Shown here: in pieces, positions 37,814 through 59,708 of the stretch
Position numbering within the stretch: position 1 is the stretch's first letter
Layout: every line of letters starts with the position of its first letter
From: an uncultured Bacteroidales bacterium
GTDB lineage: Bacteria; Bacteroidota; Bacteroidia; Bacteroidales; JAGOPY01
DNA: 64,000 nucleotides
Direction of reading: 5' to 3'
Assembly: GCA_963701785.1 (NCBI GenBank)
Contig: CAVPBC010000002.1
Location: forward strand, 1,365,093-1,429,092
Notes under the pieces: model-generated
Databases searched by the model: none
The model's input: only the letters and a program-made list of their open reading frames with translations
Told to the model about the DNA's origin: nothing
Position numbers and translations under genes: made by a program

Positions 37814-37821
37814 TCGGGTTT

Positions 37822-37932
37822 TTAACCACAAAGGCGCACAAAGTACAACACAAAGGCACACGAAGTAATTTTATATCAATTAGTAAGCCTTAGTGCGCCT
37901 TCGTGAAATCCTTAGTGCGCCTTTGTGGTTAA
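37822..37932. repeat. 111-bp palindromic intergenic element with 18-bp perfect terminal inverted repeats
   Basis: TTAACCACAAAGGCGCAC (37822-37839) ... GTGCGCCTTTGTGGTTAA (37915-37932). Inner pair CACGAAG/CTTCGTG. Internal reiteration of the word CACAAAGG. Confidence 0.8.
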
Positions 37933-38105
37933 ACGGGATGTCTCAGAAGTGTATTTATCAAAACATTAGAATTGAGGCAGGTTACAGACTTTGTTTAATC
38001 GTCGAAAAATCTGTGTTTAATCCGTGCAAATCCGAGTAATCTGTGGTGACTAACAATGAAATCTATAGGGAGTCAATCTTATTCACAGCAATGGCCAACC
38101 TGGGA

Positions 38106-39581: not shown

Positions 39582-39584
39582 GGC

Positions 39585-39896
39585 CTATTCCTGTTTTTTC
39601 TTTTTCCTGAACATTTCGAGCATCCGGTCAGTCACGACAAATCCGCCGACCACATTCAGCGTTCCGAGTATCACGGCAATAAAACCGAGTATGAGCGACA
39701 GGGTACTTTCGGCATGCCCCATCACAATGATGGCACCGATGATGACCACACCGTGTATGGCGTTGCTCCCCGACATGAGGGGGGTGTGCAGTACCGCAGG
39801 CACATGCGAGATAACTTCAATCCCAAGGAATATGGACAGGAGGATGATAAAGATCATGTCTTTATATTCCAGGAAAAATTTTAACACATCTTCCAT
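39585..39896 (-). CDS. pntAB: NAD(P) transhydrogenase subunit alpha part 2 (membrane)
   Basis: 103 aa, 3-4 TM helices (LHTPLMSGSNAIHGVVIIGAII), between pntAA and pntB with 3-11 nt spacers. Confidence 0.88.
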   Translation of the reverse strand: MEDVLKFFLEYKDMIFIILLSIFLGIEVISHVPAVLHTPLMSGSNAIHGVVIIGAIIVMGHAESTLSLILGFIAVILGTLNVVGGFVVTDRMLEMFRKKKKQE

Positions 39897-39907
39897 AATT
39901 TTTCGCG

Positions 39908-41035: not shown

Positions 41036-41305
41036 GGTAGCAGGTTTAAAGGTTAATAACGAAGGCAAATTTAAAATAATTAAAAGAATTCCATATAAAT
41101 TGTCGGTTTAGCTTCGGCAATATTATTAAATTCATCAAAAATATTTAACAACATGCAATTAAGTAGAGGAAGTATCAAAAGTTTTTTCCACGCAAAGCAC
41201 GCGAAATAATAAATGGAAGAACGCAAATTATTTAATTGGGAGACACCATATTACCCTTTATTATTATGATTGTAATTTTACAATGATTATTAAATCGAAA
41301 ATATA

Positions 41306-41638
41306 ATGGAATGGATCGAAAAACTGGATGGCAATGTGATTGTTTGTGATGCGGAAGGAATTATTATTTACATGAATGAAACCGCGTTCAGGAATTATGC
41401 AAAAGATGGGGGTAAAAGCCTTATTGGACGGAATTTGATGGATTGCCACAACGAGGATTCACGTCGAAAAATCCTCGAAATCATGACGACTCACCAGAAG
41501 AATGTTTACACGATTGAAAAGCGGGGTAAGAAAAAGATAATTTACCAGGCTCCCTGGATGGATGGAGATCTGTTTAAAGGAATCATTGAATTATCCCTGG
41601 AGATCCCATTTGAAATGCCGCATTATAAGAGGGATTGA
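41306..41638 (+). CDS. small stand-alone PAS-domain protein
   Basis: 110 aa. VIVCDAEGIIIYMNETAFRNYAKDGG...LIGRNLMDCH pattern of a PAS fold. Confidence 0.6.
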   Translation: MEWIEKLDGNVIVCDAEGIIIYMNETAFRNYAKDGGKSLIGRNLMDCHNEDSRRKILEIMTTHQKNVYTIEKRGKKKIIYQAPWMDGDLFKGIIELSLEIPFEMPHYKRD

Positions 41639-41655
41639 ATTTTTCTTTAAACTTA

Positions 41656-42363
41656 ATGGCAAAAAAGAAAATTGTGCGCATCTCCTTTTCTTTGTTTTCT
41701 TTCAGGCTGCTCATGCTTTCAGTTATCATGGCCTGGGCAGTTAACGTCAGTGGTCAGGCTAAAAACCTAGCATTTGGAGGCGGGGTAGGGTACAATATTA
41801 CGCCTATTTTGAAGCTCGATTATTATACCTGGTATCGTTATGAAGCAAATGGCAATTTCACCCCAACAATTACCTTGAGATATGGAAATAAGGTTTCCGG
41901 TGTGTTTAAAGCATCTTACATTCGAAACGCCTTTGAACAAACATTTTTTAGCCAATACGGCGGAACCTCCACAGACAGGCTCGAAGCGAATATCCATCAA
42001 ATCTATTGTGATCTTTTGTTTGAGCATGCTCCTCTTGGCTCCAGGGGTTTCTTCTATTACCTGGGGCCCGGTTTCGGCATTCCGGTCAAAGTTGAGATAA
42101 CTGAGGAATACTGGAGAGGGGAATGGGGCCCGTACCCTTCAGAGCACACTTACAAAGAATCTGTTGTACCTGCTGAGTTTAATTTATGTATCCAGGGAGT
42201 TATTGGTTTAGGCGGATATATTCCAATTAAAGAAAAAAACCTGATCAGCGTGGAATGCAACTTCAGGATTGGATTAAACAAGGTCCTGGTAAATGTGGAT
42301 AATTACGAAAAGGCCAGGATGGTTGCCATCCAGTTCATTCTGGGCTATTTAAGGCGTTTTTAG
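41656..42363 (+). CDS. outer-membrane beta-barrel-like protein, paralogue 2
   Basis: ATG 41656, MAKKKIVRISFSLFSFRLLMLSVIMAWAVNVSGQ. Colinear with 33915-34607. Ends ILGYLRRF. Confidence 0.6.
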   Translation: MAKKKIVRISFSLFSFRLLMLSVIMAWAVNVSGQAKNLAFGGGVGYNITPILKLDYYTWYRYEANGNFTPTITLRYGNKVSGVFKASYIRNAFEQTFFSQYGGTSTDRLEANIHQIYCDLLFEHAPLGSRGFFYYLGPGFGIPVKVEITEEYWRGEWGPYPSEHTYKESVVPAEFNLCIQGVIGLGGYIPIKEKNLISVECNFRIGLNKVLVNVDNYEKARMVAIQFILGYLRRF

Positions 42364-42552
42364 GATGATATTGGCTGGTAATTGCACGGCTACCAATACG
42401 GATAATAATTTCCCGGCCATTGCCCCTATACCTTTTCTTTCAGTGCCTTATACTGACTGTTGATTGACATATTGATCAACAGTCAGTATATTTGTGTAAG
42501 CCTTCATCAGGTTAATGGTTAATGATCATTCAATTCCTGTGAGGTTGTTAGG

Positions 42553-44084
42553 ATGTTTGCAGAAAAGGATCATATTAGACCTTTTATGAACCTCAATCCA
42601 ATAGCCGGGGCCTTTTGGATAATAATTCCAGCTGTCATGCTGTTTCTGTCAAGCCCCGGCAGGCTGGCTGGCCAGTGCACCGACACCGCTGACTTTTCCG
42701 GATGGTTTGAGGCAAATGGCAAGGACCACTGGCTGTTGAATTCGCCTCGTAAGGTAACAAACATTGTCGAGATTATACCGGCCAGGCCCTCTTTCTTCGT
42801 GAGCGACCAGCAATTGATCAATGTGAGGTTTTCTTTTGACGTCGAATCCCAGAATAGTCTGGATAATGACTTTATTGGATTTGTTGTCGGCTATCGAAAT
42901 CCTTATTCTGACGAATCCAATGAGTACGATTTTATTTTGTTTGACTGGAAAGCCAAATCCGGAAATGGGTATTCCCATTATGCTGAAGAGGGTTTCAGCC
43001 TGGCTGCGTTTCACGGCTATATTGCCCAGGATGCAATACATGATTATTTCTGGGGGCATAACAGTTCTGCCTCAAATTCAGCATATGAGCTTCTCTCATA
43101 CAGCTATGGGGATGAAAAAGGCTGGGATGTCATTCAAAAATATCATTTTGAGGTATTTTATATGGAAACATCCATAAAAATACTCATTGATGATAAACTA
43201 ATTTTTGATGTCGAAAGGTGCAATCAGCCCGGGAGGATCGGATTTTATACCTATTCCCAGTACGGAGTGGTTTTCAGCAATTTTTATTCCCGGAGCTCGG
43301 CCGACATCTTTGCCTCCCCAACCACTATTTGTGCAGGGGATACTGTCTTTGCAAGCCTGATGGATCCTTACTGCACCGCGTATGATCCTGCCATTGAAAG
43401 CTGGCAATGGAACTGGGGCGACGGGGAAACCTCCTTCAATAAACCCGTTGACTTCCACATTTACCAGGCTGCCGGAAATTATTTCATGGAACTTGTAGCC
43501 CAATTTTCCAGCAGTTGCAGCGATACTATAGGTACCCTGATAACCGTGCAAAACCAGCCGGAATTCGACCTTGGCCCGGATACTTCTGTACATGCCGGTG
43601 AATCGATTACCCTGACGCCGGGCGATTATCATCCAGGCTGGACTTACCATTGGTCAACAGGCAGCCGGGAGCCTCAAATCACCCTGAATGACCTTGACAG
43701 GGATACGACAATCAGGCCTTCTGGTGATAAGTTCCCTTTGCCAGGATTATGATGAGATCACTATTAAAGTAATCCATGATACCATTCCGAAATATAATAT
43801 CTGGGTACCGAATGCCTTTTCACCGGACGGTGATGGCCAGAATGATTTTTTCCAGCCGGTAACGACCGAGGTATTGCCAGATAAGTATAACCTTTACATT
43901 TATGACAGATGGGGCACGGAAATTTTCCGAGAGTTCCGAGCCTGGTAAAGGTTGGGACGGAACCTATAAAGGGCAGCCATGCCAGGGTGATGTTTATGGT
44001 TACCTGATCAGTTATCAGCCCGCCGATCAGTTACAAACTAAAGAGGTAATCATGTTAAAAGGGTGCTTTTTATTGCTAAAGTGA
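42553..44084 (+). pseudogene. TSP-C/LamG-like lectin domain + PKD domain protein with type-B T9SS (gliding-motility CHU_C) C-terminal domain; 2 frame disruptions
   Basis: Pieces 42553-43752, 43688-43948, 43902-44084. DNDFIGFVVGY...YDFILFDWK; WQWNWGDGETS (PKD); NAFSPDGDGQNDFF...IYDRWGTEIF...WDGTYKGQP...GDVYGYLISY. Confidence 0.7.
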
Positions 44085-44102
44085 ACTTTAAATTCCCACC
44101 CG

Positions 44103-44144
44103 CCTCTGTTTCCTCTGTTTATCCTCTGATACCTCTGCGGTTAA
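44103..44144. repeat. solo right arm of the TTAACCACAGAG palindromic element family
   Basis: CCTCTGTTTCCTCTGTTTATCCTCTGATACCTCTGCGGTTAA matches 55972-56013 at 41 of 42 nt. The following GACTTTTGTGAC also matches the flank at ~56026-56037. Confidence 0.8.
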
Positions 44145-44235
44145 TAATAAATGGGACTTTTGTGACATCCTCACTAAAATAATAGAGGCTAAATCCTGGC
44201 AATTTCCTTAGTTTTACAATGTAAATACAGGAAAA

Positions 44236-46586
44236 ATGACCAGGAAAATGTCCTATTATTTCAGTAAGCATTTCTTAAAAGCTTTATTCATCATCCTTTT
44301 TCTTGCCCTGTTTACCCGGGCTGAATCACAGGAATGCAGTTACACCCTGAGTATGCACGATAGCTACGGGGATGGCTGGAATGGTGGTTATCTTTCGGTT
44401 TTAGTCAATGATGTCCCGGTGGGTAATTTCTATGCCACCAATTTTGGAAGTACAGGGACCTTCCAGGTGAACACCGGAGATCTGGTAGAGCTTATCTACA
44501 CCCCCGGCGATTGGGAAAATGAAAATTCCTACCAGTTATTCGATCCGGTGTGGAATTTCCTTTTCGGTGACGGGCCTTCCCCTCAAACAGGCAGTGTTTT
44601 TTCATCCACAGGCGATTGCGATGGATCGATGCTTGCCGGGCAATCATCCCTGTACCGCGATACAAATTGATACGGGATGCATTGTTTCCGATAATACCGG
44701 CTTTCCGGGCTCCGGTTTAAACCCGGGTTGTGCTGAATACCAGGGCGCTGACATCTGGTTTGCTATGCAGGTGCCCCCTTCGGGTAATGTCAGTTTTGTT
44801 ACGGACAATGGTGATCTGACCGACACTGGATTAGCCGCCTGGACCGGCAGTACGTGCACAGATATTCATTACCTGGGCTGTGATGATGACGGAGGGAATG
44901 GTTATTACTCCTTCCTTTCCTTATATGACCTTACCCCGGAAAATATGCTGTATATACAGGTCTGGGGCTATGGTGGGGCAACCGGTACATTCGAGCTCTG
45001 TGCCCACGACCTGGGAACAGTGACCCTTGATAGTACTGAGCTGCCGATTGTCATGATCAACACATTGGGACAAACTATTGTGGAGAATACAAAGATTGAT
45101 GCCCTCATGGACATGAAATACAATGGCCCTGGCACCATAACTTATGTATCTGACAGCTCCAATGTATACAGCGGCAATATCGGCATTGAAATACGGGGAG
45201 CCACTTCGGCAGGTTATCCCCAGCATCCTTACAGCATTGAAACCCGCACCGCTGAAGGCGAAAATAACAACGTGCCCCTTCTGGGGATGCCTGAGGAAAA
45301 TGATTGGTTGCTGTTATCCAATTACAATGACCGGTCACTCATCAGGAATACGCTGGCATACAAGCTGTTCGAAGTAATGGGCAATTACAGTGTGCGGACA
45401 AGTTTATGCGAAGTGATGATCGACAGCGCTTATAAAGGCATTTACGTTTTCTGTGAAAAAATAAAACAGGATAACGGCAGGGTCGACATCGCCAAATTAA
45501 CCCCGGCCGATACTGCAGGGGATGACCTTACCGGCGGATATATCCTTGAACAGAATTACTGGAACGAATACAATAGTTTCCTTTCGAATTATTCCCCTAT
45601 CGACCATCCGGATTTTGATGTGCATTTTGTGTATTATTACCCCAAGCCGGATTCCATTGTTGGCGTTCAGAAATCATATATCGCATCCTTTGTGGATAGT
45701 CTTGAAACGGCGCTGTACAGCCCTGGGTTTGCAGATCCGGTCACAGGTTACAGGAAGTATCTCGATGTAAAATCATTCATTGATTATTTCCTGGTGAATG
45801 AATTATCACGCAACAACGATGGCTTTAAAAAGAGTGTTTATTTCAATAAGGATAAGAATTCAAACGATAGCAAGCTGAAAGCAGGACCTGTGTGGGATTT
45901 CGACTGGGCGTGGAAAAACCTGTATGGCTGTTCACATTTTTGAAAACCTGGATGGCTCAGGATGGGCGCACCATATCAATGATTGCCCCACTGACAATTA
46001 CTCCTGCGGCTGGTATATCCGGTTATTGCAGGACAGCACATTTGCCGATGAACTCAGGTGCGCCTACGACAATTACAGGCTGACCATTTTAGATACTGCC
46101 TATATTTTTTCCTACATCGACAGCGTGGAGAACCTGGTGCAAAATGCCCAGGCAAGGCATTTCCAGAAATGGCCCATCCTGGGCATCAGCGGTCCTGCAC
46201 CCGAGGTTGGAAATGTGGCCACAACCTACAGCGGAGAGCTTGATACCCTCAAAGCCTGGATAAAATTACGTTTACAATGGCTGGATGAAAATATACCGGG
46301 GCTCTGTCCGAATGTCTCCATTAATGACGATCCACGGCAAGTTGAAAACACTTTAAATTTCTACCCAAATCCCGGTAACGGTAATTTTCATTTTGAAGGA
46401 TATATTGAAAGCGACACCCCGATACAAATGTATGTTTACGATCTGACCGGCAGAATGATCGATCGCGTTTCCCTTCAGCCAGGCAGCTTGCGATTCGATT
46501 ACCGGTTGAACAGGAAAGGGTTGTTCTTATTCACCATTACCAACAATAACGGGCTCCTGCAGTCTGGAAAATTGATCGTACAGTAG
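44236..46586 (+). pseudogene. CotH-family (atypical kinase fold) protein with T9SS C-terminal sorting domain; 2 frame disruptions
   Basis: Pieces 44236-44670, 44519-45943, 45924-46586. LPIVMINT, IGIEIRGATSAGYPQHPYSIE, NDRSLIRNTLAYKLF, KGIYVFCEKIKQD, NNDGFKKSVYFNKD, GPVWDFDWAW. CTD LNFYPNPGNGNFHF. Confidence 0.75.
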
Positions 46587-46660
46587 CTGGAAACGTCAAC
46601 CATGCTAAATGACTTCATGGGCACCTATGTTATGGATCCGATGAACCAAAATGAGATTTT

Positions 46661-46668
46661 TATGTTTA
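46661..46668 (+). promoter_or_regulatory. possible Bacteroidota -7 promoter box (TATGTTTA; consensus TAnnTTTG)
   Basis: 28 nt upstream of ATG 46696. An identical octamer sits at the same spacing upstream of the paralogue at 54044, within a conserved GGATCCGATGAACCAAA...TATGTTTA leader. Confidence 0.3.
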
Positions 46669-46695
46669 ATGCCTACACTACTTAAAATATTATTT

Positions 46696-48493
46696 ATGAA
46701 AAAAGATTATTACTCTAAATCAAGCACCTTTAGATCCTTCATTTTCGGTATCATATTATTATTATCAATGACGATGTCCCTTCACGCCCAGACACTTACA
46801 GTTCAAACGCCAAACGGCGGCGAAGTTTGGACTTACGGACAAAGTGAAACAGTTACCTGGACCGGAACCGGCCTGGGCAGCCTGGTGTCGCTTGAATTTT
46901 CAGCGGATGGTGGCGCTACATGGTCCTTTATCGGCAATACTCCGTCGACTCCAACCGGCGGCTCTGTCCTGATCGGTGTTCCGGTATTGGCGAGCACCAA
47001 TGCATTCTTTAGGGTTACAAACCTTGAGGTCCCCGCTGCTTCGGATATCAGCGATGCACCATTTACGGTCATTGTGCCTCCGATCATCATTTATGAACCT
47101 TCTCCAGCATCTGCCATTTTTGCTGAAGCAGAAGTCTTTGTTAATTGGGGAACTACCGAAAATGGTATTACCCTTCTAAATGCTGAAATATCAATTGATA
47201 ATGGCGTGACCTATACGCCTGTTGCTCAGAACATCAATGCATTGTTTTATTATACATATATTGTGTTATCGGATACTCCATCTGATTCCTGTATCCTTAA
47301 GCTTTATAACGTGGATGATCCTACCGAGTATGGCCTGAGCCAGGTTTTTACAATAAGTCCTCTTCCTGTTTATAACCTGATTTCCCCGGCCGCCGGAGAA
47401 CTGGTAAATACCAACAGCCCTTACAGCATTACCTGGACCGTGGAGAATCCTTATAATGGATATGCTTATCTTGAATATTCCATTAATAACGGTCAGACCT
47501 GGGAAATCATCAATGGTGTTTTTTATCAGGGTAATACCGGAAGTTATGAATGGTACACACCAAATGTGGATTCAGATGAATGCCTCGTCAGGATCGGCGA
47601 TTCTTATTCATTAAACTCCCTGGATACCAGCGGGATGTTCTCGATATTTACGTTCCCTGAAACCCCGGTCTGCATGGTGTCGGTCGACAGCCTGACGAAT
47701 TACAATGTGGTTATATGGGAAAGGCCTGTTTCAGATATGATAGCCGATTTCCTGGTTTATAAAGAAACAGATGAATTTAATGTATATGAAGTGATCGATA
47801 CAGTAGGGTATGAGGAAATAACGATGGTCACCGACGCCGGTTCAAACCCGGCCATTAGGCCCTATCGATATAAAATCGGGTTCATTGATATCGAAAACAG
47901 GCTGTTCCCGTCAGGCGATTACCACCAGACCATTCACCTGACCATCAACCAGGGCGTGAACGATTCCTGGAACCTGATCTGGACGCCTTATACCGGGTTT
48001 GATTATCCTTCCTATAAGATCATGCGTAAAACAGATTCCGGCGATTATGAGCAGATCGCGACCGTTTCGGCAAGTTTTAGTTCCTATACCGACTTGAATG
48101 CGCCTCCCGGTGAAGTCTTCTATATGATAAAGATTGATGCACCCCGACGGCTGCAACCCGGCTATCCGCGATGGAGAATATGCCAGCGTATACTCCAATG
48201 TGGCAACAAACAGCATTGTTTCGGTTTTCGAAAACAAAGACCCGGACTTCACCATTTATCCCATCCCGGCTGATAAGCAACTCAATGTTTCATTCGGTGA
48301 AAACATTACCGGAAAGACCAGGCTGATCATCAGCGATCTGACGGGCAGGGTGGTTTATTCCGAAGATATCAATGACGTGCGTCCCGGACAGGTGCAAACG
48401 ATCAACAGCCTTGGCTTTAAAGAGGGGATGTACCTGCTGCAGTTAACCTCAGAAGGAAACAGTGCTACCAGAAAGATTGTGATAAAGCACTAG
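46696..48493 (+). pseudogene. Asp-box (SxDxGxTW) repeat / FN3-like T9SS cargo protein, paralogue 1; 1 frame disruption (extra T at ~48137)
   Basis: Pieces 46651-48273 and 48134-48493. SADGGATW, SIDNGVTY, SINNGQTW. AAGATTGATGCACCCCGACGGC versus AAGATTGAGCACCCTGACGGC in copy 3. CTD IYPIPADKQLNVSF. Confidence 0.8.
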
Positions 48494-48564
48494 CCGAGAC
48501 TAATTCACGGCTGCTGCACTGAACAAAACATGATTACTTTTGTTGTAAGTTCGAAATTGAGAAA

Positions 48565-49783
48565 ATGAAAAAGATAAAGTTACTTCTGGCCATTCTTCTG
48601 ATATCAAACATGGGGTTGAACGCCCAGATCAACCTTGTTGGTGCAGCATATAACCCGTCGACCGAAATGATCGATATTGTCAAATGGCAGGCGCTCGATT
48701 CGGGATCTGTAATCACCATTCCATCTATCCTTGAGGGATATTACTTCGGCTCATCAGCATTTGATGCATACAATGGAAATTATTACCTGACCGGGATCAC
48801 CGCCGATGATCAGGGCTTGTTTTCATTCAACACTCAAACAAATGAACAGGAACTGAGTGAATTCACTCTATTTTCGAATGTTTCGGAATTCGACATGAGC
48901 ACGGGCAAAATTTACGATCTCCGCCTTGACTCTACCGAATATATCAGTGTGAATGAATTTGATATTCTAACCGGAACTGACAGCCTGATCGGGGTGATCT
49001 ATGAGCCGGGAGCCAATGCAATTGTGGCTGACGCAATCGGTTTTAATTCCAATGATGGCATTATTTATTATGTGGGTTTTACTAATGAACCTGCAATATG
49101 CCTTTACGCTATCCCGGTAAGGGAAGAAGTTTTTTCTTTCAGCAGGACAACGCTTTTGCCAACCGCTCCTTATAATATTCTGACCGGCGTAAATTATGAT
49201 AATGTCAATGATAAGATATTTGCGTTAAATGCAACTTACGACAGCCTTTTCAATTATACCGGCAACGAAATCGTAGAGATAGATAAAGAGACCGGCGATA
49301 TTAATGTCCTGGCAGAATTGAATGAATTTACAGGATTCGTAGGCGGTTCTTCTTCTTTCGATCAGAATACCGGCAGTTTTCTGCTTTCGGGTATTGATAC
49401 CAGCAACCTGTTGCGCATGATCGTCTTCAACACCTACACAAACACCTATGAGACCGGGTTTGTCCCTGGCGTTTCCGAAATCGCTTGTGATAATACCATA
49501 TTTGCATTGAACAATTACATCATAACCTCAGTAACAGATAATGAAGAAATTGACTTCAGTGTCTCCCCAAATCCTGCCACCGACAGGCTTAGGGTTACTG
49601 TTAACGCTGCGTGAAGATGTCCTGGTGAGGATTTATTCGACGAATGGAAGCCTGGTGATCAGCAAAGAATTCTCACCAGGGGAAAATATTGAATTGTACC
49701 TGGATTTCCTGCCGTCAGGCGCATATCTTGTCAATGTTTTATCCGGCGGGATGAACGGTTCTAAAAAGATTCAGATACTTTAA
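48565..49783 (+). pseudogene. hypothetical secreted protein with T9SS C-terminal sorting domain; 1 frame disruption (~49600)
   Basis: Pieces 48565-49614 (signal MKKIKLLLAILLISNMGLNAQ; ...FSVSPNPATDRLRV) and 49541-49783 (VRIYSTNGSLV...GAYLVNVLSGGMNGSKKIQIL). Confidence 0.65.
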
Positions 49784-49792
49784 ATATTATTT

Positions 49793-51589
49793 ATGAAAAC
49801 AGATCAATACACCAAATCAACCACCTTAAAATCCTTCATTTTAGGCGTCATATTATTATCATCAATGACGATGTCGCTTAATGCCCAGTCACTTACGATT
49901 CAAACACCAAACGGTGGGGAGGTATGGACCTACGGGCAGTCGGAGATCATAACCTGGACCGGAAACAACCTTAGCAATTCAGTTATGGTCTACTTCTCCT
50001 ATGACGGCGGGACGAACTGGTGGTCTTATGGGCAGGTTCCTTCAGGACCCAATGGCGGCAGCGCAACGGTTAGCGCTCCAAATGTTCAAACCACGAATGC
50101 AATAATTAATCTGACCGATGTCATTAATCCTGATGCAACCGATATGAGTGATGAGCCATTTACTGTTTATGTTCCACCGATTATCATTTGGAGCCCTGCG
50201 CAAGGAGATGTCATCTTTAATAACACCGTATCGTCTGTGTTCTGGGTAATAAATACTACAGGGATCAATCTTCTTAATGCTGAACTGTCGAATGATAATG
50301 GCCAGACCTATACACTCATAGGGGAAAATATAAATGCACAGGAGGGTTATACCTTTCTCTTTTTTTCCACCACTCCTTCTGATTCATGCATCATCAGGCT
50401 ATACAACGTGGAAGATCCTGCTGAATATGGTCTCAGCGCTATCTTTACAATAGCAACTCCCCCGGTCTATACCCTCACATCCCCGCAGGGAGGTGAAATT
50501 GTAAATACATTTAGCCCTTTCTTAATTACATGGACGGTGGAAAACCCTTATGGGCCCTATTGCTACCTTGAATACTCCGAAGATAGCGGACAGACCTGGG
50601 AGATTATTGATAATGCCATGAATGAAGGCAATTCAGGAAGTTACGAATGGTTTACGCCCAATGTGGAGTCCGAAGAGTGCCTTGTCAGGATCACGGACTC
50701 TTATTCATTTACATCGGTCGATACCAGTGGAATGTTCACAATTTTAATGTTCCCTGAAACACCGGTCTGTATGGTGTCGGTTGATAGCCTGACAAACTAC
50801 AATGTGGTTATTTGGGAAAAGCCTGTTTCAGATATGATAGCCGATTTCCTGGTTTATAAAGAAACAGATGAATTTAATGTTTATGAAGTGATCGATACAG
50901 TAGGGTATGAAGAAATAGCGATGGTCACAGATTCCGGTTCAAACCCGGGCATGAGGCCTTATCGGTATAAAATCGGGTTCATTGATGTCGAAAACAGGCT
51001 ATTCCCGGCAGGCGATTACCACCAGACCATTCACCTGACCATCAATCAGGGTGTGAACGATTCATGGAACCTGATCTGGACCCCTTACATCGGAATTGAT
51101 TATACTTCATATAAGATCATGCGGAAAACAGATGCTGATGATTTTGAGCAGATCGCGACCGTATCGGCCAGTTTCAGTTCATTTACTGATTTTAACGCTC
51201 CTCCCGGTGAAGTTTTCTATATGATCAAGATCGAGCATCCTGACGGCTGCAACCCGGCTTCACGCGATGGAGAATATGCCAGCGTTTATTCCAATGTAGC
51301 TTCGAACAGCATCGTTTCGGTTTCCGAAAACAAAGACCTGGACTTCACCATTTATCCCATCCCGGCTGATAAGCAACTCCATGTTTCATTCGGAGAAAAC
51401 ATCACCGGAAAGGCCAGGCTGATCATCAGCGACCTGACGGGCAGGATGGTTTATTCGAAAGATATCAATGGCGCGCGTCCCGGACAGGTGCAGTCGATCA
51501 ACAGCCTTAACTTTAAAGAGGGGATGTACGTTCTGCGGTTAACCTCAGAGGGTAACAGTGCAATCAGGAAGATCGTGATTAAGCACTAG
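49793..51589 (+). CDS. Asp-box repeat / FN3-like T9SS cargo protein, paralogue 2
   Basis: 598 aa, intact. SYDGGTNW, SNDNGQTY, SEDSGQTW. The C-terminal ~290 aa are ~90% identical to copies 1 and 3. Confidence 0.8.
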   Translation: MKTDQYTKSTTLKSFILGVILLSSMTMSLNAQSLTIQTPNGGEVWTYGQSEIITWTGNNLSNSVMVYFSYDGGTNWWSYGQVPSGPNGGSATVSAPNVQTTNAIINLTDVINPDATDMSDEPFTVYVPPIIIWSPAQGDVIFNNTVSSVFWVINTTGINLLNAELSNDNGQTYTLIGENINAQEGYTFLFFSTTPSDSCIIRLYNVEDPAEYGLSAIFTIATPPVYTLTSPQGGEIVNTFSPFLITWTVENPYGPYCYLEYSEDSGQTWEIIDNAMNEGNSGSYEWFTPNVESEECLVRITDSYSFTSVDTSGMFTILMFPETPVCMVSVDSLTNYNVVIWEKPVSDMIADFLVYKETDEFNVYEVIDTVGYEEIAMVTDSGSNPGMRPYRYKIGFIDVENRLFPAGDYHQTIHLTINQGVNDSWNLIWTPYIGIDYTSYKIMRKTDADDFEQIATVSASFSSFTDFNAPPGEVFYMIKIEHPDGCNPASRDGEYASVYSNVASNSIVSVSENKDLDFTIYPIPADKQLHVSFGENITGKARLIISDLTGRMVYSKDINGARPGQVQSINSLNFKEGMYVLRLTSEGNSAIRKIVIKH

Positions 51590-51625
51590 CGGAATAAGTT
51601 CGTGCTCCAACAACCCCCATCCCGG

Positions 51626-51647
51626 CCTTCCCCCAAACGGGGGAAGG
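51626..51647 (+). terminator. GC-rich stem-loop downstream of paralogue 2
   Basis: CCTTCCCCC-aaac-GGGGGAAGG, 9-bp perfect stem, 37 nt after the stop at 51589. No U-tract. Confidence 0.4.
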
Positions 51648-51722
51648 AGATGCCAGAACCGACGGCTTCATTCGTCGGACTGCAAAAACAGAGGTTGAGC
51701 CATATGAGGAAACACTTCAAAG

Positions 51723-51897
51723 ATGCCTGACAAATTGTTATTTATTGATACAGAGACAGGAGGCCTGGATCCGGACAAACATTCGCTGTTATCAATAGCT
51801 ATGGTTGTCTGGGAAGACATGGAGATCATATACGGCGATAGGTGATGCCATCGCTACAGCAAAACTTTTTACGAAATTGCTGTATCTTCTAAAGTAG
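51723..51897 (+). pseudogene. internally deleted DnaQ-like (DEDD) 3'-5' exonuclease remnant
   Basis: Own translation: MPDKLLFIDTETGGLDPDKHSLLSIAMVVWEDMEIIYGDR* (Exo I motif DTET), followed in another frame by DAIATAKLFTKLLYLLK* (the typical C-terminal Exo III tail). About 130 aa of middle are missing. Confidence 0.6.
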
Positions 51898-51940
51898 GGA
51901 TTCAAAGTGGCAACCTGCAGTAGGCCTTATCAACCTATGT

Positions 51941-52042
51941 TTCACGCAAAGACCGCTAAAACAAAAGAAAGTTCGCAAGCATTTAAATATCAATAATTTA
52001 TTTTGCGATCTTTTTTATAATCTTTGCGAACTTTGCGTGGAA
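51941..52042. repeat. ~100-bp palindromic intergenic element of the CACGCAAAG type
   Basis: CACGCAAAG (51944-52) pairs with CTTTGCGTG (52031-39). AGTTCGCAA (51970-78) pairs with TTGCGAACT (52024-32). A solo arm TTTCCACGCAAAG occurs at 41184-41196. Confidence 0.7.
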
Positions 52043-52227
52043 ATCAACTTTTAAGACAATCTCTTACAAAAGGCGTCGTGACGCGCGGGTATCTATCCAA
52101 ATAAGGATAAAGCTCTTTTGTTAATAATTTCCCCGATACTGTGAACATAAGAGTTTGATGATCATTCTGGATAAAAGCTACTTTTGATTACTTAATAAAC
52201 CGGAAATAATCTATAAGAAAATAAAAA

Positions 52228-53319
52228 ATGGCGCAACAATATTTAGATCATTCAAAAGCAATTTTAACTTCTCATCGTTCCAATTTTAAAGGGGGAAGCA
52301 AAGGTTCGGGGATTATCTCATTATTTGGATATCAAAACGAATATGATCTCAGAGAAGGGTATCCCTTATTGACTACAAAAAAAATGGCCACAAGATCCAT
52401 GTTTCATGAAACAATATGGTTCTTGCGAGGGGATACAAATATTAAATATCTTGAAGACAATAACGCCCCGATCTGGAGGCCTGATGCTTTTCAGGACAAT
52501 CTTCCAGGGATGATCAAAGAAGGAGTATTTCCGGAAGGTCTTATAAAGTATTCTCCCGATTGGGACAAAGCGATGGAAGAATATGGTCAGAGGATAAGAG
52601 AAGATGCTGAATTTGCAGAAAGATGGGGAGATGCAGGACCCATATATGGTAAACAGTGGAGAAGATGGGAATATTTTGATCATGACAAAGGAACCTTTGT
52701 TGAAATAGATCAACTGGGAAAAATGATTGCAGGTCTGAAAAAGAAACCAACCGGGAAGAAACATATTGTCGATTCATGGAATCCCGGGGATACCCCGAAA
52801 ATGTCATTACCTCCATGCCATGTTCTTTACCAGGCAACTGCAAATGAAGAAGGAGAGCTGGAATTACAGCTTTACCAGAGAAGTTGCGACCAGTTTTTAG
52901 GTGTCCCTTTTAATATAGCCAGTTATGCTGCGCTCACCCAGATAATTGCGCAGGAAGCAGATATGGTCCCAAAAACATTTATCCACACTTTTGGCGATGC
53001 ACATTTTTATACCAGTATTGGAAAGAGAACTCAATGGTACAAAGGTAATTTCAAGGAAGTACAACAAAGAATAAGAAGTGTTTCTCAAAGAGAAGATTAT
53101 CTGGAAGTTGTTGATTGGATCAATAAAAATGCCCCCAGTGACGGAAATGAAGAAAAATATGATCATGTAACTGCAATACTCGAGCAAATGTCGAGGGAAC
53201 CCAGGCCCCTGCCTAAATTACATATTGCAAAAAAACCTTTTGATCAGTTGACCATAGATGATTTTGTCGTAGAAAATTATGATCCCCATCCTCCGATAAG
53301 AAGGAATATGTGTGTATAA
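52228..53319 (+). CDS. thyA: thymidylate synthase (ThyA family), unusually long with two insertions
   Basis: 363 aa. HETIWFLRGDTNIKYL, GPIYGKQWRRW, DQLGKMIAGLKKKPTGKKHIVDSWNP, LPPCHVLYQ (catalytic Cys), YQRSCDQFLGVPFNIASYAALTQ, FGDAHFY. Confidence 0.85.
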   Translation: MAQQYLDHSKAILTSHRSNFKGGSKGSGIISLFGYQNEYDLREGYPLLTTKKMATRSMFHETIWFLRGDTNIKYLEDNNAPIWRPDAFQDNLPGMIKEGVFPEGLIKYSPDWDKAMEEYGQRIREDAEFAERWGDAGPIYGKQWRRWEYFDHDKGTFVEIDQLGKMIAGLKKKPTGKKHIVDSWNPGDTPKMSLPPCHVLYQATANEEGELELQLYQRSCDQFLGVPFNIASYAALTQIIAQEADMVPKTFIHTFGDAHFYTSIGKRTQWYKGNFKEVQQRIRSVSQREDYLEVVDWINKNAPSDGNEEKYDHVTAILEQMSREPRPLPKLHIAKKPFDQLTIDDFVVENYDPHPPIRRNMCV

Positions 53320-53930
53320 ACCGCACAACTTTGGAAGAATTAGTATTTGCTATTCCAGCAGACATCCTATGGAAATTATTACCCTATAAAGAAAAGGGGT
53401 TAATAAAGGGAACCGGCGATGTTTTGAACAGGATTGTTCAGAATGGCCTGTTTCGGAAAAGGAGCGAATTGGAAGAAGACCCTTCCTTTAAGCAAATTAT
53501 TCCGTATGCATTGATCTCAAATAAAAAATCATTTTACGTATTCCGGAGAATATCCGGGCAGACAGAGAAAAGATTACACAATAAGCTTCACCTGGGTGTA
53601 GGCGGGCATATGAATCCCGGCAGTTCAAAGGAACCGGGTGAACAGTACCTGGTTAATGAATTAAAAAGAGAATTTTTTGAAGAGGTTCAATTGTTAAATG
53701 GATGTTTAATAGAGGATATAGAATTTATTGGCTTTATCAATGATGATTCTATTTCGGTTGGCCGTGTTCATATAGGACTACTATATAATATCCGTGTATC
53801 AAATAGATATGTTGTTATTAATGAAACGGATAAGATGTCAGCAGAATGGATAGATAAAAAAGATCTGTTTGAATATTACGAAGAAATGGAAACATGGACT
53901 AAAATTGCAATTGATGACTTTATAAAGTGA
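53310..53930 (+). CDS. Nudix-like hydrolase (YmaB-like by recollection), overlapping the thyA stop
   Basis: 206 aa. GVGGHMNPG...E..LVNELKREFFEEVQL approximates a Nudix box with an enlarged loop. GTG start at 53310 overlaps the thyA end by 10 nt; start codon uncertain. Confidence 0.6.
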   Translation: MCINRTTLEELVFAIPADILWKLLPYKEKGLIKGTGDVLNRIVQNGLFRKRSELEEDPSFKQIIPYALISNKKSFYVFRRISGQTEKRLHNKLHLGVGGHMNPGSSKEPGEQYLVNELKREFFEEVQLLNGCLIEDIEFIGFINDDSISVGRVHIGLLYNIRVSNRYVVINETDKMSAEWIDKKDLFEYYEEMETWTKIAIDDFIK

Positions 53931-54007
53931 AGATATACACCAGCATAAAAGTGTAAGCCTCCCCGGACAAGCTTATTTTTGGATCCGATGAACCAAATTG
54001 AAATGAA

Positions 54008-54015
54008 TATGTTTA
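54008..54015 (+). promoter_or_regulatory. possible -7 promoter box (TATGTTTA), conserved with 46661-46668
   Basis: Same octamer and the same 28-nt spacing to ATG 54044, preceded by the conserved GGATCCGATGAACCAAA. Confidence 0.3.
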
Positions 54016-54043
54016 TTCCGTTAATTACTAAAAAAAATTATTT

Positions 54044-55840
54044 ATGAAAAAAGATAATTACGCTAAATCAAGCACATTTAGATCCTACATTTTTGGAATC
54101 ATATTATTGTCATCCATGACGATGTCCATTCATGCCCAGACACTTACGGTTCAATCACCAAATGGTGGGGAGTTTTGGACTTATGGAGGAACAGAAATAG
54201 TCACCTGGACCGGTAACAACCTTAGTAGCATTGTTTCGATACACTTTTCTTATGACGGCGGGACGAACTGGTGGTATTTCGGCGAGGTTCCTTCAGGCCC
54301 CAATGGTGGCAGTGCAACGCTTGGGGTCCCAAATGTTCAAACCACGAATGCAATATTAAAGCTTAGTGATGTCATTAATCCTGTTGCAACCGACATGAGT
54401 GATGAGCCATTTACTGTTTATGTTCCGCCGATCGTCATTTATGCACCTTCTCCGGAATATGCCGTTTTTGCTGGAAGTGATGTATATGTTAACTGGATGC
54501 TGACCGTGGGTGGTATTACTCTTCTAAATGCTGAAATATCGATTGATAATGGTATGACCTATACACCCGTTGCTCAAAACATTAATGCACTGGCGGGGTA
54601 TACCTATCTAAATTTGTCCGATACCCCTGCGGATTTATGTATCCTCAAGCTTTATAACGCTCAGGATCCTTCCGAGTATGGCCTGAGCGAAGTTTTTACA
54701 ATAAGTCCCCTTCCTGTTTATAACCTGGTTACCCCGGCGGCCGGGGAACTTGTCAATACCAACAGCCCTTACACAATCACCTGGACCGTGGAAAATCCTT
54801 ATTCAGCGTATTGCTACCTTGAATACTCCGTAAATAACGGCCAGACCTGGGAGGTTATCAATAATGCAATTAATGAAGGGAATTCAGGTAGTTACGAATG
54901 GTATACGCCAAATGTGGATTCCGAAGAATGCCTGGTCAGGATCACCGATTCCTATGCATTTTCGGAAATGGATACCAGTGGAGTGTTCTCAATATTTACC
55001 TTCCCGGAAACGCCGGTTTGCATGGTCTCCGTTGACAGCCTGACCAACTTTAATGTGATCATCTGGGAAAAGCCTGTTTCTGATATCATAGCCGATTTCC
55101 TGGTTTATAAAGAAACAGATGAAGCCAATGTCTATGAAGTGATTGATACGGTAGGTTATGTGGAAGTAACCATGGTCACCGACTCCGGTTCAAACCCGGC
55201 CATCAGGCCCTATCGGTATAAGATCGGGTTCGTTGATGTCGAAAACAGGCTGTTCCCGGCAGGTGATTACCACCAGACCATTCACCTGACCATCAACCAG
55301 GGAGTGAATGATTCCTGGAACCTGATCTGGACACCTTATACCGGGTTCGATTATTCTTCCTATAAGATCATGCGTAAAACAGATTCTGGCGATTATGAGC
55401 AGATCGCGACCGTTTCGGCCAGTTTCAGTTCATATACTGACTTCAACGCCCCTCCCGGTGAAGTCTTCTATATGGTAAAGATTGAGCACCCTGACGGCTG
55501 CAACCCTGTTACACGCGATGGAGAATATGCCAGTGTATACTCCAATGTAGCCTCGAACAGCATCGTATCGGTTTCCGAAAACAAAGATCCGGACTTCACC
55601 ATTTATCCCATCCCGGCTGATAAGCAACTCAATGTTTCATTCGGTGAAAACATCACCGGTAAGGCCAGGCTTGACATCAGCGATCTAACGGGAAGGGTGG
55701 TATATTCAGAAGATATCAACGATGTTCGTCCCGGACAGGTGCAACCAATCAACAGCTTTGGCTTTAAAGAAGGGATGTATCTGCTGCAATTAACCTGCGG
55801 AGAAAACAGCGCCACCAGGAAGATCGTAGTAAAGCATTAG
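54044..55840 (+). CDS. Asp-box repeat / FN3-like T9SS cargo protein, paralogue 3
   Basis: 598 aa, intact. SYDGGTNW, SIDNGMTY, SVNNGQTW. CTD IYPIPADKQLNVSF...MYLLQLTCGENSATRKIVVKH. Confidence 0.8.
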   Translation: MKKDNYAKSSTFRSYIFGIILLSSMTMSIHAQTLTVQSPNGGEFWTYGGTEIVTWTGNNLSSIVSIHFSYDGGTNWWYFGEVPSGPNGGSATLGVPNVQTTNAILKLSDVINPVATDMSDEPFTVYVPPIVIYAPSPEYAVFAGSDVYVNWMLTVGGITLLNAEISIDNGMTYTPVAQNINALAGYTYLNLSDTPADLCILKLYNAQDPSEYGLSEVFTISPLPVYNLVTPAAGELVNTNSPYTITWTVENPYSAYCYLEYSVNNGQTWEVINNAINEGNSGSYEWYTPNVDSEECLVRITDSYAFSEMDTSGVFSIFTFPETPVCMVSVDSLTNFNVIIWEKPVSDIIADFLVYKETDEANVYEVIDTVGYVEVTMVTDSGSNPAIRPYRYKIGFVDVENRLFPAGDYHQTIHLTINQGVNDSWNLIWTPYTGFDYSSYKIMRKTDSGDYEQIATVSASFSSYTDFNAPPGEVFYMVKIEHPDGCNPVTRDGEYASVYSNVASNSIVSVSENKDPDFTIYPIPADKQLNVSFGENITGKARLDISDLTGRVVYSEDINDVRPGQVQPINSFGFKEGMYLLQLTCGENSATRKIVVKH

Positions 55841-55908: not shown

Positions 55909-56013
55909 TTAACCACAGAGAAAACAGAGGTTCAGCAGAGGAAACAGAGAAATAAGTATCTGATATTGAATCCTCTGTTTCCTCTGTTTATCCTCTGATA
56001 CCTCTGTGGTTAA
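55909..56013. repeat. 105-bp palindromic intergenic element, TTAACCACAGAG...CTCTGTGGTTAA
   Basis: 12-bp perfect termini. The arms are built from reiterated ACAGAGG/CCTCTGT words. An outer inverted pair GTCTCAAAAG (~55895) / CTTTTGAGAC (~56027) extends the structure to ~55893-56038. Confidence 0.8.
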
Positions 56014-56071: not shown

Positions 56072-56876
56072 AACATTTAAAAATTGCTTTTTATACAGCG
56101 AACGGCCAGGCCACAATTTTTACGGAAATGATTTCTGAAAAGGGCGGTATTGTCATATGACATGCTCCTGTAAAATGCAAATTCAGAATTTTCTTCCGTG
56201 GAAGTCCACCATAAGCCATAATAGCCAAAGTACCAGAAAGGCCCGTCCTTTTGCCGGCTGCCGCCGGGCAATCCTGAGAAGCCGGTTACATTGGTCGCAC
56301 CCGTATTAGGGCTGTGCCAGTAGAGCGTATCGGTTTCTTTCAATTTCCCGCCCGACACCTGTTCACCTCCAAGAAATTCCACCATGATGGTCCAGTCATC
56401 ATCTGTCGGTATGCGCCAACCGTCAGGACAAAGGCCGCGGGGATCATTCAGGGCGTGCCAGTTATACAGGTGCCCGAAAACGGCGGCATTCGGGGAATGG
56501 TTATTTATATCACACCAGGCCCCGGAAAATAATTCATCCCAATCCTTACTGTCCACTACATTGGCTACCATGTCACCATTCCGATAATGGGTTGTATTCA
56601 GGTTCTCCGCCATCCAGACCTGGTTCCCGATAATTATTGTGTGATATACATTGCCGTCAATATCCGTAACAGTCGTTTTGTCTTGTTTGTCACAACAGGG
56701 TAAACAGATTATGATCCCGGTAACAACGACAGCGAATAAAGCCGGAGATAAATAAAACTTCATCGCAGGGAATGATAAATTAAGCCAATATAACGGAAAT
56801 GACCGGGGGCAGCGCCGGTAAAACCACGAATGGTCAATTTGAAATTGCAAATAGAATCAGGACAGGACAGGACAGG
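56072..56876. repeat. 0.8-kb direct repeat, copy A (contains FISUMP gene 1 and its upstream region)
   Basis: Aligns by eye with 58910-59708 with about 16 substitutions. Boundaries run from AACATTTAAAA to the (AGGAC)n tract. Confidence 0.85.
56077..56763 (-). CDS. FISUMP (Fibrobacter succinogenes major paralogous) domain lipoprotein, copy 1
   Basis: ATG at complement of 56761-56763: MKFYLSPALFAVVVTGIIICLPCC. DIDGNVYHTIIIGNQVWMAENL, GHLYNWHA, CPDGWRIPTDDDW, GGKLKE, GFSGLPGG, WWTSTE, AVRCIK. Confidence 0.8.
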   Translation of the reverse strand: MKFYLSPALFAVVVTGIIICLPCCDKQDKTTVTDIDGNVYHTIIIGNQVWMAENLNTTHYRNGDMVANVVDSKDWDELFSGAWCDINNHSPNAAVFGHLYNWHALNDPRGLCPDGWRIPTDDDWTIMVEFLGGEQVSGGKLKETDTLYWHSPNTGATNVTGFSGLPGGSRQKDGPFWYFGYYGLWWTSTEENSEFAFYRSMSYDNTALFRNHFRKNCGLAVRCIKSNF

Positions 56877-58909: not shown

Positions 58910-59708
58910 AACATTTAAAATTTGCCTTTTATACAGCGAACGGCCAGGCCACAATTTTTACGGAAATGATTCCTGAAAAGGGCGGTATTGTCATATGACA
59001 TGCTCCTGTAAAATGCAAATTCAGAATTTTCTTCCGTGGATGTCCACCATAAGCCATAATAGCCAAAGTACCAGAAAGGTCCGTCCTTTTGCCGGCTGCC
59101 GCCGGGCAATCCTGAGAAGCCGGTTACATTGGTCGCACCCGTATTAGGGCTGTGCCAGTAGAGCGTATCGGTTTCTTTCAATTTCCCGCCCGACACCTGT
59201 TCACCTCCAAGAAATTCCACCATGATGGTCCAGTCATCATCTGTCGGTATGCGCCAACCGTCAGGACAAAGGCCGCGGGGATCATTCAGGGCGTGCCAGT
59301 TATACAGGTGCCCGAAAACGGCGGCATTCGGGGAATGGTTATTTATATCACACCAGGCCCCGGAAAATAATTCATCCCAATCCCTGCTGTCCACCACATT
59401 GGCTACCATGTCACCATTCCGGTAATGGGTCGTCTTCAGGTTCTCTACCATCCAGACCTGGTTCCCGATAATTACTGTGTGATATACATTGCCGTCAATA
59501 TCCGTAACAGTCGTTTTGTCTTGTTTGTCACAACAGGGTAAACAGATTATGATCCCAGTAACAACGACAGCGAATAAAGCCGGAGATAAATAAAACTTCA
59601 TCGCAGGGAATGATAAATTAAGCCAATATAACGGAAATAACCGGGGGCAGCGCCGGTAAAACAACGAATGGTCAATTTGAAATTACAAATTCAATGAGGA
59701 CAGGACAC
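58910..59708. repeat. 0.8-kb direct repeat, copy B
   Basis: See copy A. Begins 7 nt after the TerC stop. Confidence 0.85.
58915..59601 (-). CDS. FISUMP-domain lipoprotein, copy 2
   Basis: ATG at complement of 59599-59601. The protein differs from copy 1 at a handful of positions (HTVIIG, VENLKT, SRDW, C-terminal KGKF). Confidence 0.8.
   Translation of the reverse strand: MKFYLSPALFAVVVTGIIICLPCCDKQDKTTVTDIDGNVYHTVIIGNQVWMVENLKTTHYRNGDMVANVVDSRDWDELFSGAWCDINNHSPNAAVFGHLYNWHALNDPRGLCPDGWRIPTDDDWTIMVEFLGGEQVSGGKLKETDTLYWHSPNTGATNVTGFSGLPGGSRQKDGPFWYFGYYGLWWTSTEENSEFAFYRSMSYDNTALFRNHFRKNCGLAVRCIKGKF

Follow-up and report, generated by a model that had tools for sequence, protein, structure and literature searches.

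Three genes of about 598 codons each, carried by an uncultured Bacteroidales bacterium with a Lentimicrobiaceae-like genome, raise the question of how their patchwork of mutual similarities arose, and whether it is the outcome of a dedicated variation system or of ordinary recombination. They lie on the same strand (+) of contig CAVPBC010000002.1 (assembly GCA_963701785.1), within a stretch of 64,000 nucleotides (nt) that is designated here as the window, and their sequences predict type A cargo of the type IX secretion system (T9SS). The genes are called copies 1, 2 and 3, and their relatives are cited under P and L numbers. The mosaic is a true patchwork generated by homologous recombination.

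Mosaic relationships of the three copies

Over the whole gene, the copies are 77-81% identical in nucleotides and 73-80% in amino acids (aa). Identity is 59-70% in aa 1-310 and 86-91% in aa 311-598, which bears out the original prediction of a C-terminal half of about 290 residues conserved at about 90%. It had also been claimed that the nearest relative switches between segments of the N-terminal part, and this was confirmed by sliding windows, runs tests and segmentation penalised by the Bayesian information criterion (BIC). In nt 151-375, copies 2 and 3 agree with each other at 79-86% and with copy 1 at 50-57%. In nt 376-750, copies 1 and 3 agree at 77-87%, against 62-69% with copy 2, and in nt 751-900 copies 2 and 3 are paired again.

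Sites at which exactly one of the three copies differs were taken as informative (n=456). They form 238 runs against 297 +/- 10 expected (z=-5.9), and none of 20000 shuffles was as extreme. The clustering is also seen at 143 synonymous sites, located in codons whose residue is unchanged from copy to copy (z=-3.2, p=0.001). Walks similar to those of 3SEQ are significant whichever copy is taken as the child (p<=0.0004). The BIC segmentation placed breakpoints at aa 68-70, 127-130, 255 and 301, dividing the gene into five blocks (Table 1).

The exchanged tracts were expected to coincide with modules, which is not strictly the case: of the breakpoints, that at aa 127-130 alone matches a boundary between domains in the structural model of copy 3. 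Strict module-wise shuffling was rejected for the family as well; among 42 genes, the correlation between left and right distances has a dip at nt 375-390 (r=0.44) and no clear one at the other domain boundaries. A change of partners within the C-terminal half, likewise proposed, is visible by eye but statistically weak (runs test p=0.14; post-hoc block chi-square p=0.008).

Relatives from other assemblies were included in the comparison, six of them as DNA from related metagenomes and metagenome-assembled genomes. The DNA set comprised nine sequences (copies 1, 2 and 3, P0001 from L052, P0002 from L051, P0016 from L053, L001, L005b and L002), while P0013 and P0015 were compared as proteins only. 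The pairwise homoplasy index (PHI) of the nine sequences was 0.431, against a permutation mean of 0.553 (sd 0.004; p<0.001), and p<0.001 was also obtained for the N-terminal half, the C-terminal half and third codon positions. In the neighbor-joining tree of nt 151-400, P0002 and copy 2 are grouped with 100% bootstrap support, the clade of P0001, P0002, copy 2 and copy 3 has 97% with copy 1 outside it, copy 1 is joined with L005a (88%), and L001, L002 and L005b form a clade with 100%. In the tree of nt 401-780, P0001 is paired with P0002 (100%) and copy 2 with P0016 (100%), and copy 1 lies inside a clade with P0001, P0002 and copy 3 (96%). L005b, which belongs to the L001/L002 group in the former segment, belongs here to the group of P0016 and copy 2 (100%).

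The segments nt 151-400, 401-780 and 1441-1794 thus support conflicting clades at 96-100% bootstrap, and rate variation cannot be the cause of such conflict. Together with the clustering at synonymous sites and the PHI test, these trees substantiate segmental recombination as the source of the incongruence, as the original prediction held. The PHI test and segment phylogenies, which it had named as checks, show no single consistent topology and rule out rate variation without breakpoints.

The closest partners of the N-terminal modules are found in other assemblies. Copy 1 is 98% identical to P0015, from another sample, in aa 51-133, 94% in aa 134-260 and 96% in aa 261-310, while its identity to copies 2 and 3 over aa 51-133 is about 50%. 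Copy 2 is 98% identical to P0013 in aa 134-260 and 92% in aa 261-310, and its best match over aa 51-133 is P0002 (88%; 89% of nucleotides in module 1). About 40 mismatches separate copy 2 from P0013 in aa 1-128 and about 6 in aa 129-300, so that identity steps sharply from ~70% to ~97% at aa ~128; the pattern against P0002, a protein present on 6 contigs from several samples, is the opposite. The nearest relatives of copy 3 are P0001, P0017 and P0006, with copies 1 and 2 nearly equal to them in modules 1 and 2 (76-86% against 77-78%). In their N-terminal modules, copies 1 and 2 are therefore far closer to outside relatives than to their own genome, and copy 3 only marginally so. Segment typing by clustering revealed that the module types are combined in many ways among the 40 closest relatives. 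A large part of the exchange concerns lineages beyond this genome, not the three copies among themselves.

Age, selection and the 3' half

Synonymous divergence (dS) among the copies is 0.22-0.71 in the C-terminal segments and ranges from 0.5 to more than 1.5, i.e., saturation, in the N-terminal segments, so that it is at least 0.22 everywhere; the most similar segments have 0.22-0.6. Between any two copies, uninterrupted identity extends over 40-65 nt at most, and the most similar 150-nt window reaches 95%. Orthologous genes in the flanks are 6-15% different from those of the strains carrying P0001, P0002 and P0016. The yardstick for this flank divergence is the pair of housekeeping genes at 52228..53930, which are 89-92% identical in nucleotides to related strains. 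Compared with the flanks, the divergence of the copies indicates that the exchanges date from about the time when those strains split, or from before. The recombination events are old.

Nonsynonymous divergence (dN) is 0.12-0.47 in the N-terminal modules versus 0.02-0.11 in the C-terminal half. The dN/dS ratio is mostly 0.08-0.15 and up to 0.26 in the C-terminal half, and 0.1-0.28 in the N-terminal modules; only the signal-peptide segment has higher ratios. Selection is purifying, and nothing suggests ongoing high-frequency switching or strong diversifying selection.

The 3' half shows a different tendency from the 5' half. Among 21 genes of multi-copy genomes, the nearest neighbor comes from the same genome for 4, 4 and 5 genes in modules 1, 2 and 3, respectively, and for 9, 10 and 9 genes in the two FN3-like domains and the linker plus sorting domain. 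Mutual nearest neighbors within one genome are observed in the C-terminal region for copies 1 and 2, L005a and L005b, L007 and L022, and the L008 array. The tandem genes L005a and L005b, from one metagenome-assembled genome (MAG), are grouped with 100% bootstrap in nt 1441-1794 and belong to different clades in the N-terminal modules. In the C-terminal half, copy 2 is 87-90% identical in nucleotides to copy 1 and only 78-84% to its positional orthologue P0016, although these two contigs are 94% identical in the adjoining 405-aa gene. This is expected from interlocus gene conversion of the 3' half. The pattern suggests, from sequence comparison, that the 3' half tends to cluster by genome through partial concerted evolution; it is a tendency and not a rule, and the L016, L019 and L027 pairs are without it.

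Protein family, gene island and assembly quality

The 77 C-terminal residues are the only part of these proteins that matches a curated family in Pfam or NCBIfam. Residues 520-597 of copies 2 and 3 match PF18962 (Por_Secre_tail) with 40.3-42.3 bits (cut-off 27) and TIGR04183 with 37.7-40.1 bits (cut-off 23). The tail of copy 1, with its frame restored, is 84-90% identical in amino acids to these tails. The N-terminus has a basic start, a hydrophobic stretch and an A-Q junction (SMTMSIHAQ/TLTVQ). The AlphaFold2 model of copy 3, built with 82 homologues, has a mean pLDDT of 81.7, exceeding 90 over aa 30-320. It begins with a helix at aa 11-23 followed by a low-confidence stretch, and its fold is all-beta. 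The mature part is modelled as a rod of five Ig/FN3-like beta-sandwich domains (Table 1). Each N-terminal module carries one Asp-box-like motif, S-x-D/N-x-G-x-T/N-W/Y, at aa 69, 166 and 262. The earlier description as Asp-box modules thus stands at the level of the motif, but not at that of the domain family, since the Pfam match to BNR is under its cut-off, as are those to Reelin-subrepeat-B and Big_7.

No function could be assigned by homology. A sequence-profile search of PDB recognized the sorting domain alone, and Foldseek against PDB found only strings of Ig/FN3 domains (receptor ectodomains, titin) and an S-layer protein, with TM <=0.2; together with Pfam and NCBIfam, these searches yield only the sorting domain and generic Ig/FN3 folds. 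Other proteins with a sorting domain are encoded in the window (a CotH-like protein, the 405-aa protein and a 975-aa DUF1565 protein), which would indirectly support a T9SS machinery (PorK/L/M/N, Sov and PorU/V) in this genome. The final place of such cargo is most likely the cell surface, to which it would be anchored.

The copies belong to an uncharacterised family of about 599 aa distributed in Lentimicrobiaceae and other Bacteroidales. Searching the protein collection with copy 3 revealed at least 277 relatives, 56-85% identical to it and nearly all 597-600 aa long, from Lentimicrobium, Lentimicrobiaceae, and MAGs and metagenomes of Bacteroidales. A scan of species-representative genomes, a set outside which the source genome lies, found 48 loci, many with tandem arrays of two to four copies (L003, L005, L008, L016, L019, L023, L027 and L029); family copies were often on short contigs. 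A search of the literature library found no paper on T9SS in Lentimicrobiaceae.

Table 1. Positions of the three copies, their blocks and model domains, and associated features in the window
Feature	Position in window	Strand	Remarks
Copy 1	46696..48493	+	Start codon homologous to copies 2 and 3 at 46696; 598 aa after dropping the extra base
Extra base T in copy 1	48138	+	Relative to copies 2 and 3; shifts the frame directly 5' of the HPDGCNP motif
Copy 2	49793..51589	+	Intact 598-aa open reading frame, identical to P0008
Copy 3	54044..55840	+	Intact 598-aa open reading frame
Block aa 3-68			Mixed (BIC segmentation)
Block aa 70-127	46903..47076 (copy 1)	+	Gene nt 208-381; copy 1 odd; sites with copy 1, 2, 3 odd 68:9:5; most of module 1
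Block aa 130-255	50182..50555 (copy 2)	+	Gene nt 390-763; copy 2 odd; 27:84:25; module 2 and start of module 3
Block aa 255-301	47459..47597 (copy 1)	+	Gene nt 764-902; copy 1 odd; 26:10:2; within module 3
Block aa 301-598			Mixed (BIC segmentation)
Putative signal peptide			aa 1-31 in the copy 3 model
Beta-sandwich modules 1, 2, 3			aa 33-127, 130-222, 225-318 in the copy 3 model
Two FN3-like domains			aa ~325-481 in the copy 3 model; followed by a low-confidence linker
Predicted T9SS type A sorting domain			aa 520-597 in the copy 3 model
Promoter-like motif TGAAC-N17-GTTTA	46642..46668	+	Upstream of copy 1
Promoter-like motif TGAAC-N17-GTTTA	53989..54015	+	Upstream of copy 3
T9SS cargo gene (405-aa gene)	48565..49792	+	Between copies 1 and 2; intact 405 aa in related strains, here split by a 1-nt insertion at 49610
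Thymidylate synthase	52228-53319	+	Between copies 2 and 3
206-aa open reading frame	53310-53930	+	Between copies 2 and 3

A motif of the form TGAAC-N17/18-GTTTA precedes 35 of 43 members of the family, drawn from many genomes (loci L003-L043), and ends 24-28 nt before the ATG. By its sequence, this GAAC-type element resembles promoters of ECF sigma factors. In the window it occurs only before copies 1 and 3. A leader common to these two copies had been noted earlier and does extend over 75 nt at 72% identity; it does not indicate an exchange specific to copies 1 and 3, the motif being family-wide. The stop codon of the 405-aa gene is only 11 nt upstream of the start of copy 2, and copy 2 is therefore without a leader of its own. 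Copy 2, P0002 and P0016, which directly adjoin the 405-aa gene or what is left of it, are without the motif.

Related contigs have common flanks (transhydrogenase genes, thymidylate synthase and the 405-aa gene) with varying content between them. L049, L050 and L051 carry one family gene, P0002; the final ~250 nt of the 405-aa gene stand before it, and other cargo genes separate it from thyA. L052 carries P0001 with an ion-channel gene upstream. The slot directly after the 405-aa gene is held by copy 2 here, by P0015, of the copy 1 type, in another sample, and by P0016 in L053. These differences between common flanks indicate that the island has been rearranged between strains, besides the exchange within genes. 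In L049, positions 9689-10000 correspond to window positions 48503-48572 and 49536-49792. Only the first few bases and the last ~250 nt of the 405-aa gene are retained, from which a loss of the gene body by internal deletion is concluded; the leftover encodes a 52-aa sorting-domain remnant directly upstream of the family gene.

The copies are surrounded by an island of genes for secreted or surface proteins (34886-46586 and 59796-62738). Besides the 975-aa DUF1565 protein with a T9SS sorting domain and the CotH-like protein with a sorting domain, it includes a TSP_C/PKD protein as well as one of 980 aa that carries a tail-fibre-type intramolecular-chaperone domain, Peptidase_S74. The segments 33946-34606 and 41708-42366 are homologous to each other, and each matches the same L049 gene with 73-74% identity. 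Two genes with a Fib_succ_major domain, 56077-56850 (-) and 58915-59664 (-), are ~98% identical across ~790 nt. They form direct repeats around the genes for an ion channel and TerC, with unrelated sequence beyond them; the pair results from recent duplication or conversion, unless it was duplicated in the assembly. An intergenic palindrome of REP-like type lies at 55909-56013, just 3' of copy 3, with 52-nt arms that are 81% complementary. A half copy of it is found at 44103-44151, and intergenic copies with 84-88% identity are found in the related strain L049 (7264-7465 and 16373-16515).

As assembled, copy 1 consists of two open reading frames (ORFs), 46651-48273 and 48134-48493. The three copies of about 598 aa are located where the original prediction placed them, except that copy 1 is not an intact ORF; without its extra base, it encodes a 598-aa protein colinear with copies 2 and 3. 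The protein collection includes the truncated product of copy 1 (P0057) as well as copies 2 and 3, and all three map to one contig of 2,890,125 bp. The inserted base is a single one outside any homopolymer. Several other genes in the window are split into overlapping ORFs of different frames: a TonB-dependent receptor into plug and barrel (5020-6838), a beta-propeller protein into five pieces (11920-14050), the CotH gene into two (44519-46586), and the 405-aa gene, in which the insertion is evident relative to two intact orthologues. This pattern is typical of an indel-prone long-read consensus. Given so many split genes, apparent pseudogenes in this window are not to be trusted, and the extra base of copy 1 is probably a consensus error; the frameshift is present in the assembly, but copy 1 was rejected as a pseudogene. 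P0109 (L003b, L003 13373-13390), from a MAG whose contig naming suggests long reads, also has a 1-nt insertion about 12 codons 3' of the copy 1 site, which cuts off the linker and the sorting domain. In both genes, the extra base stands between GA and G. This likeness may be a coincidence or a systematic basecalling error.

Explanations and known systems

The most probable explanation by far is that RecA-type homologous recombination has acted over evolutionary time on a multi-copy, population-polymorphic family of T9SS cargo, with no dedicated or fast switching mechanism. The proteins would pass the inner membrane by means of the Sec signal peptide and be exported via the T9SS by means of the type A sorting domain. 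In the 5' half, the tracts would represent deeply diverged types common to strains and even species, exchanged among gene lineages through interlocus gene conversion, allele import from other strains, or both. Copy 3, P0001 and P0002 may represent the core lineage, with aa 70-127 and 255-301 as putative foreign tracts in copy 1 and aa 130-255 in copy 2. The 3' half (FN3-like domains, linker and sorting domain) tends to be more alike within a genome than to N-terminal orthologues elsewhere, as would result from partial concerted evolution. We infer the directions of transfer, the share of intragenomic conversion versus inter-strain import, and a surface role, either adhesin-like or structural.

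Several observations weigh against this explanation. The pairs of L016 and L027 are two stable, divergent paralogues along the whole gene, and in the tail the clade of the window copies has a bootstrap of only 45-60%. Breakpoints in conserved DNA had been considered and were rejected, as conservation at the four BIC breakpoints is not significantly higher than at random positions (p=0.32). The direction and donors of single tracts can be resolved only with the rest of the genome and more DNA. The combination of module types in copy 2 appears in no other assembly, so that a consensus chimera at that one junction is possible, and the putative function as a surface adhesin is read from the architecture.

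That the mosaic reflects programmed antigenic or surface variation, in which expressed genes are often rewritten by conversion from cassettes as in pilE/pilS, vlsE, tprK or msp2, is very improbable. A multi-copy family that is conserved in its 3' half and variable in its 5' half, with proven segmental mosaicism, would suit such a system, as would the much lower identity of the family gene between strains (72-90% of nucleotides, versus 94% for the neighboring gene). However, searches of the 64-kb window with copy 3 as the query (tblastn and blastn) found no partial or silent copies; beyond the copies themselves, they matched only the sorting domains of other cargo genes, which are unrelated and 26-28% identical. 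All three copies are full length with a start codon, a predicted signal peptide and a sorting domain, and copies 1 and 3 each have the promoter-like motif. The tracts are too dissimilar for recent donors and recipients, the longest shared run being 65 nt with dS >=0.22, and dN/dS does not exceed 0.28 outside the signal-peptide segment. The module combination of copy 1 recurs in the independent sample of P0015 (94-98% in amino acids), which indicates that mosaics are stable over strain divergence, and the two-copy genomes L016 and L027 keep their paralogues unmixed. The analogy with variable surface-antigen cassettes drawn in the original prediction thus fails on silent copies in the window, near-identical tracts, age and selection.

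Other dedicated mechanisms received no support. Neither a tyrosine or serine recombinase nor a reverse transcriptase is among the Pfam families listed for most ORFs of the window (25 of 35 families for one batch of 26 ORFs). The only transposase in these Pfam scans is an IS200-like Y1 type (ORF 22717-23190 (-)), about 24 kb from the copies in a low-GC stretch (37-38% GC at 22-26 kb). No inverted repeats bracket the copies or their leaders, the only one nearby being the REP-like palindrome 3' of copy 3; an Rfam scan gave no match, and a scan for sigma-70 promoters and terminators gave hits at chance level. The absence of a recombinase among the listed families and of flanking inverted repeats led to the rejection of a shufflon or other invertible DNA. 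A diversity-generating retroelement target was likewise rejected, as no reverse transcriptase is among those families and the differences between copies span the entire 5' 930 nt with all substitution types. The locus fails the tested hallmarks of cassette antigenic variation, shufflons and diversity-generating retroelements.

The remaining alternatives concern the reality and the range of the exchange. Chimeric consensus, created by a long-read assembler switching between strains or paralogues, is highly unlikely, even though the assembly is error-prone, as the split receptor, beta-propeller, CotH, 405-aa and copy 1 genes show, and the module-1/module-2 combination of copy 2 is unique among the 40 closest relatives. 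The mosaic of copy 1 is reproduced in an independent assembly (P0015), and P0002 conflicts with P0001 and P0016 independently of this window; chimeric consensus does not explain these observations. Moreover, no segment of copy 2 is identical to a known strain allele, and copies that are 20-50% different in the relevant tracts are hard to collapse. A lineage- or region-specific change of rate without any recombination, whether heterotachy or positive selection on single modules of single copies, has next to no credibility, provided that the alignments are correct. The N-terminal modules do evolve faster than the C-terminal half in dN, and three sequences alone give no four-gamete test, but the clustering holds at synonymous sites, PHI is significant at third codon positions, the same sequences join different well-supported clades in adjacent segments once outgroups are included, and identity changes in sharp steps, as between copy 2 and P0013.

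It is also unlikely that the exchange was essentially allelic replacement between strains or species, by transformation or other horizontal transfer with homologous recombination, and that no conversion took place among the three copies. The greater similarity of the N-terminal modules of copies 1 and 2 to outside relatives agrees with this, as do the strain-dependent types in the slot after the 405-aa gene; for copy 3 the margin is small, with copies 1 and 2 among its nearest relatives. In the C-terminal regions, however, copies of the same genome are often mutual nearest neighbors, and copy 2 is nearer to copy 1 than to its positional orthologue P0016. This likeness within the genome is easier to explain by intragenomic conversion, and both processes may coexist.

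A possible, though doubtful, further reading is population-level diversification of a surface receptor or adhesin in free-living Lentimicrobiaceae. Deeply diverged types of the N-terminal Asp-box modules might be maintained by negative frequency-dependent selection (e.g., by phages or grazers) and reshuffled between copies and strains, with the constant 3' half and the TGAAC-N17/18-GTTTA promoter as anchors for recombination and expression, and the junction of modules 1 and 2 (aa ~128) as a recurrent crossover point.

The locus provides a statistically solid example of T9SS cargo mosaicism outside the well-studied oral pathogens, in an uncharacterised family that is widespread and often tandemly amplified in environmental Bacteroidales. 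As it shows, old module types are recombined to build the surface diversity among strains of such uncultured lineages. Family genes are also sites where short-read assemblies break, and the consensus of MAGs needs care there. This is an ordinary mode of evolution of bacterial surface-protein families; the mechanism itself is not new, while the protein family is uncharacterised.

Cassette-based antigenic variation is known from pilE/pilS of Neisseria, vlsE of Borrelia, tprK of Treponema and msp2 of Anaplasma. The present family is similar in its segmental, non-reciprocal-looking exchange and in the combination of a conserved frame with variable blocks in a surface-protein family. It differs in having no layout of expression site and silent cassettes in the 64-kb window, no near-identical donor tracts and no sign of high frequency, as well as in its purifying selection. 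Interlocus gene conversion and concerted evolution are known in bacterial families of paralogous surface proteins, and mosaic genes in naturally transformable bacteria. The three copies resemble such families in being multi-copy, close together and on one strand, with the conserved part homogenised within genomes and with deep allelic lineages and patchwork relationships in the variable parts. In contrast to them, there is no recent tract here (dS >=0.22), so that conversion must be rare or quickly obscured.

The nearest described case is that of the T9SS surface proteins of Porphyromonas gingivalis. Domain rearrangement and allelic exchange were reported for Kgp, RgpA, the HagA adhesin domains and PrtT, among others (Dashper et al. 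2017, PMC5266723). Discrete domain variants are found there in mosaic combinations unrelated to strain phylogeny; PHI and GARD-type tests detected the mosaic, and homologous recombination and gene conversion were named as its cause (PMC5266723). The present family is uncharacterised and has no protease or haemagglutinin domains, only Asp-box beta-sandwich and FN3-like modules, and its tracts mostly ignore domain boundaries. P. gingivalis is a host-associated pathogen analyzed through isolates, whereas the organisms here are environmental, uncultured and represented by metagenome contigs. In both cases, the proteins are T9SS cargo of Bacteroidota with a signal peptide (predicted here) and a C-terminal sorting domain, and a mosaic of discrete variants is ascribed to homologous recombination. 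The present locus works like that of P. gingivalis.

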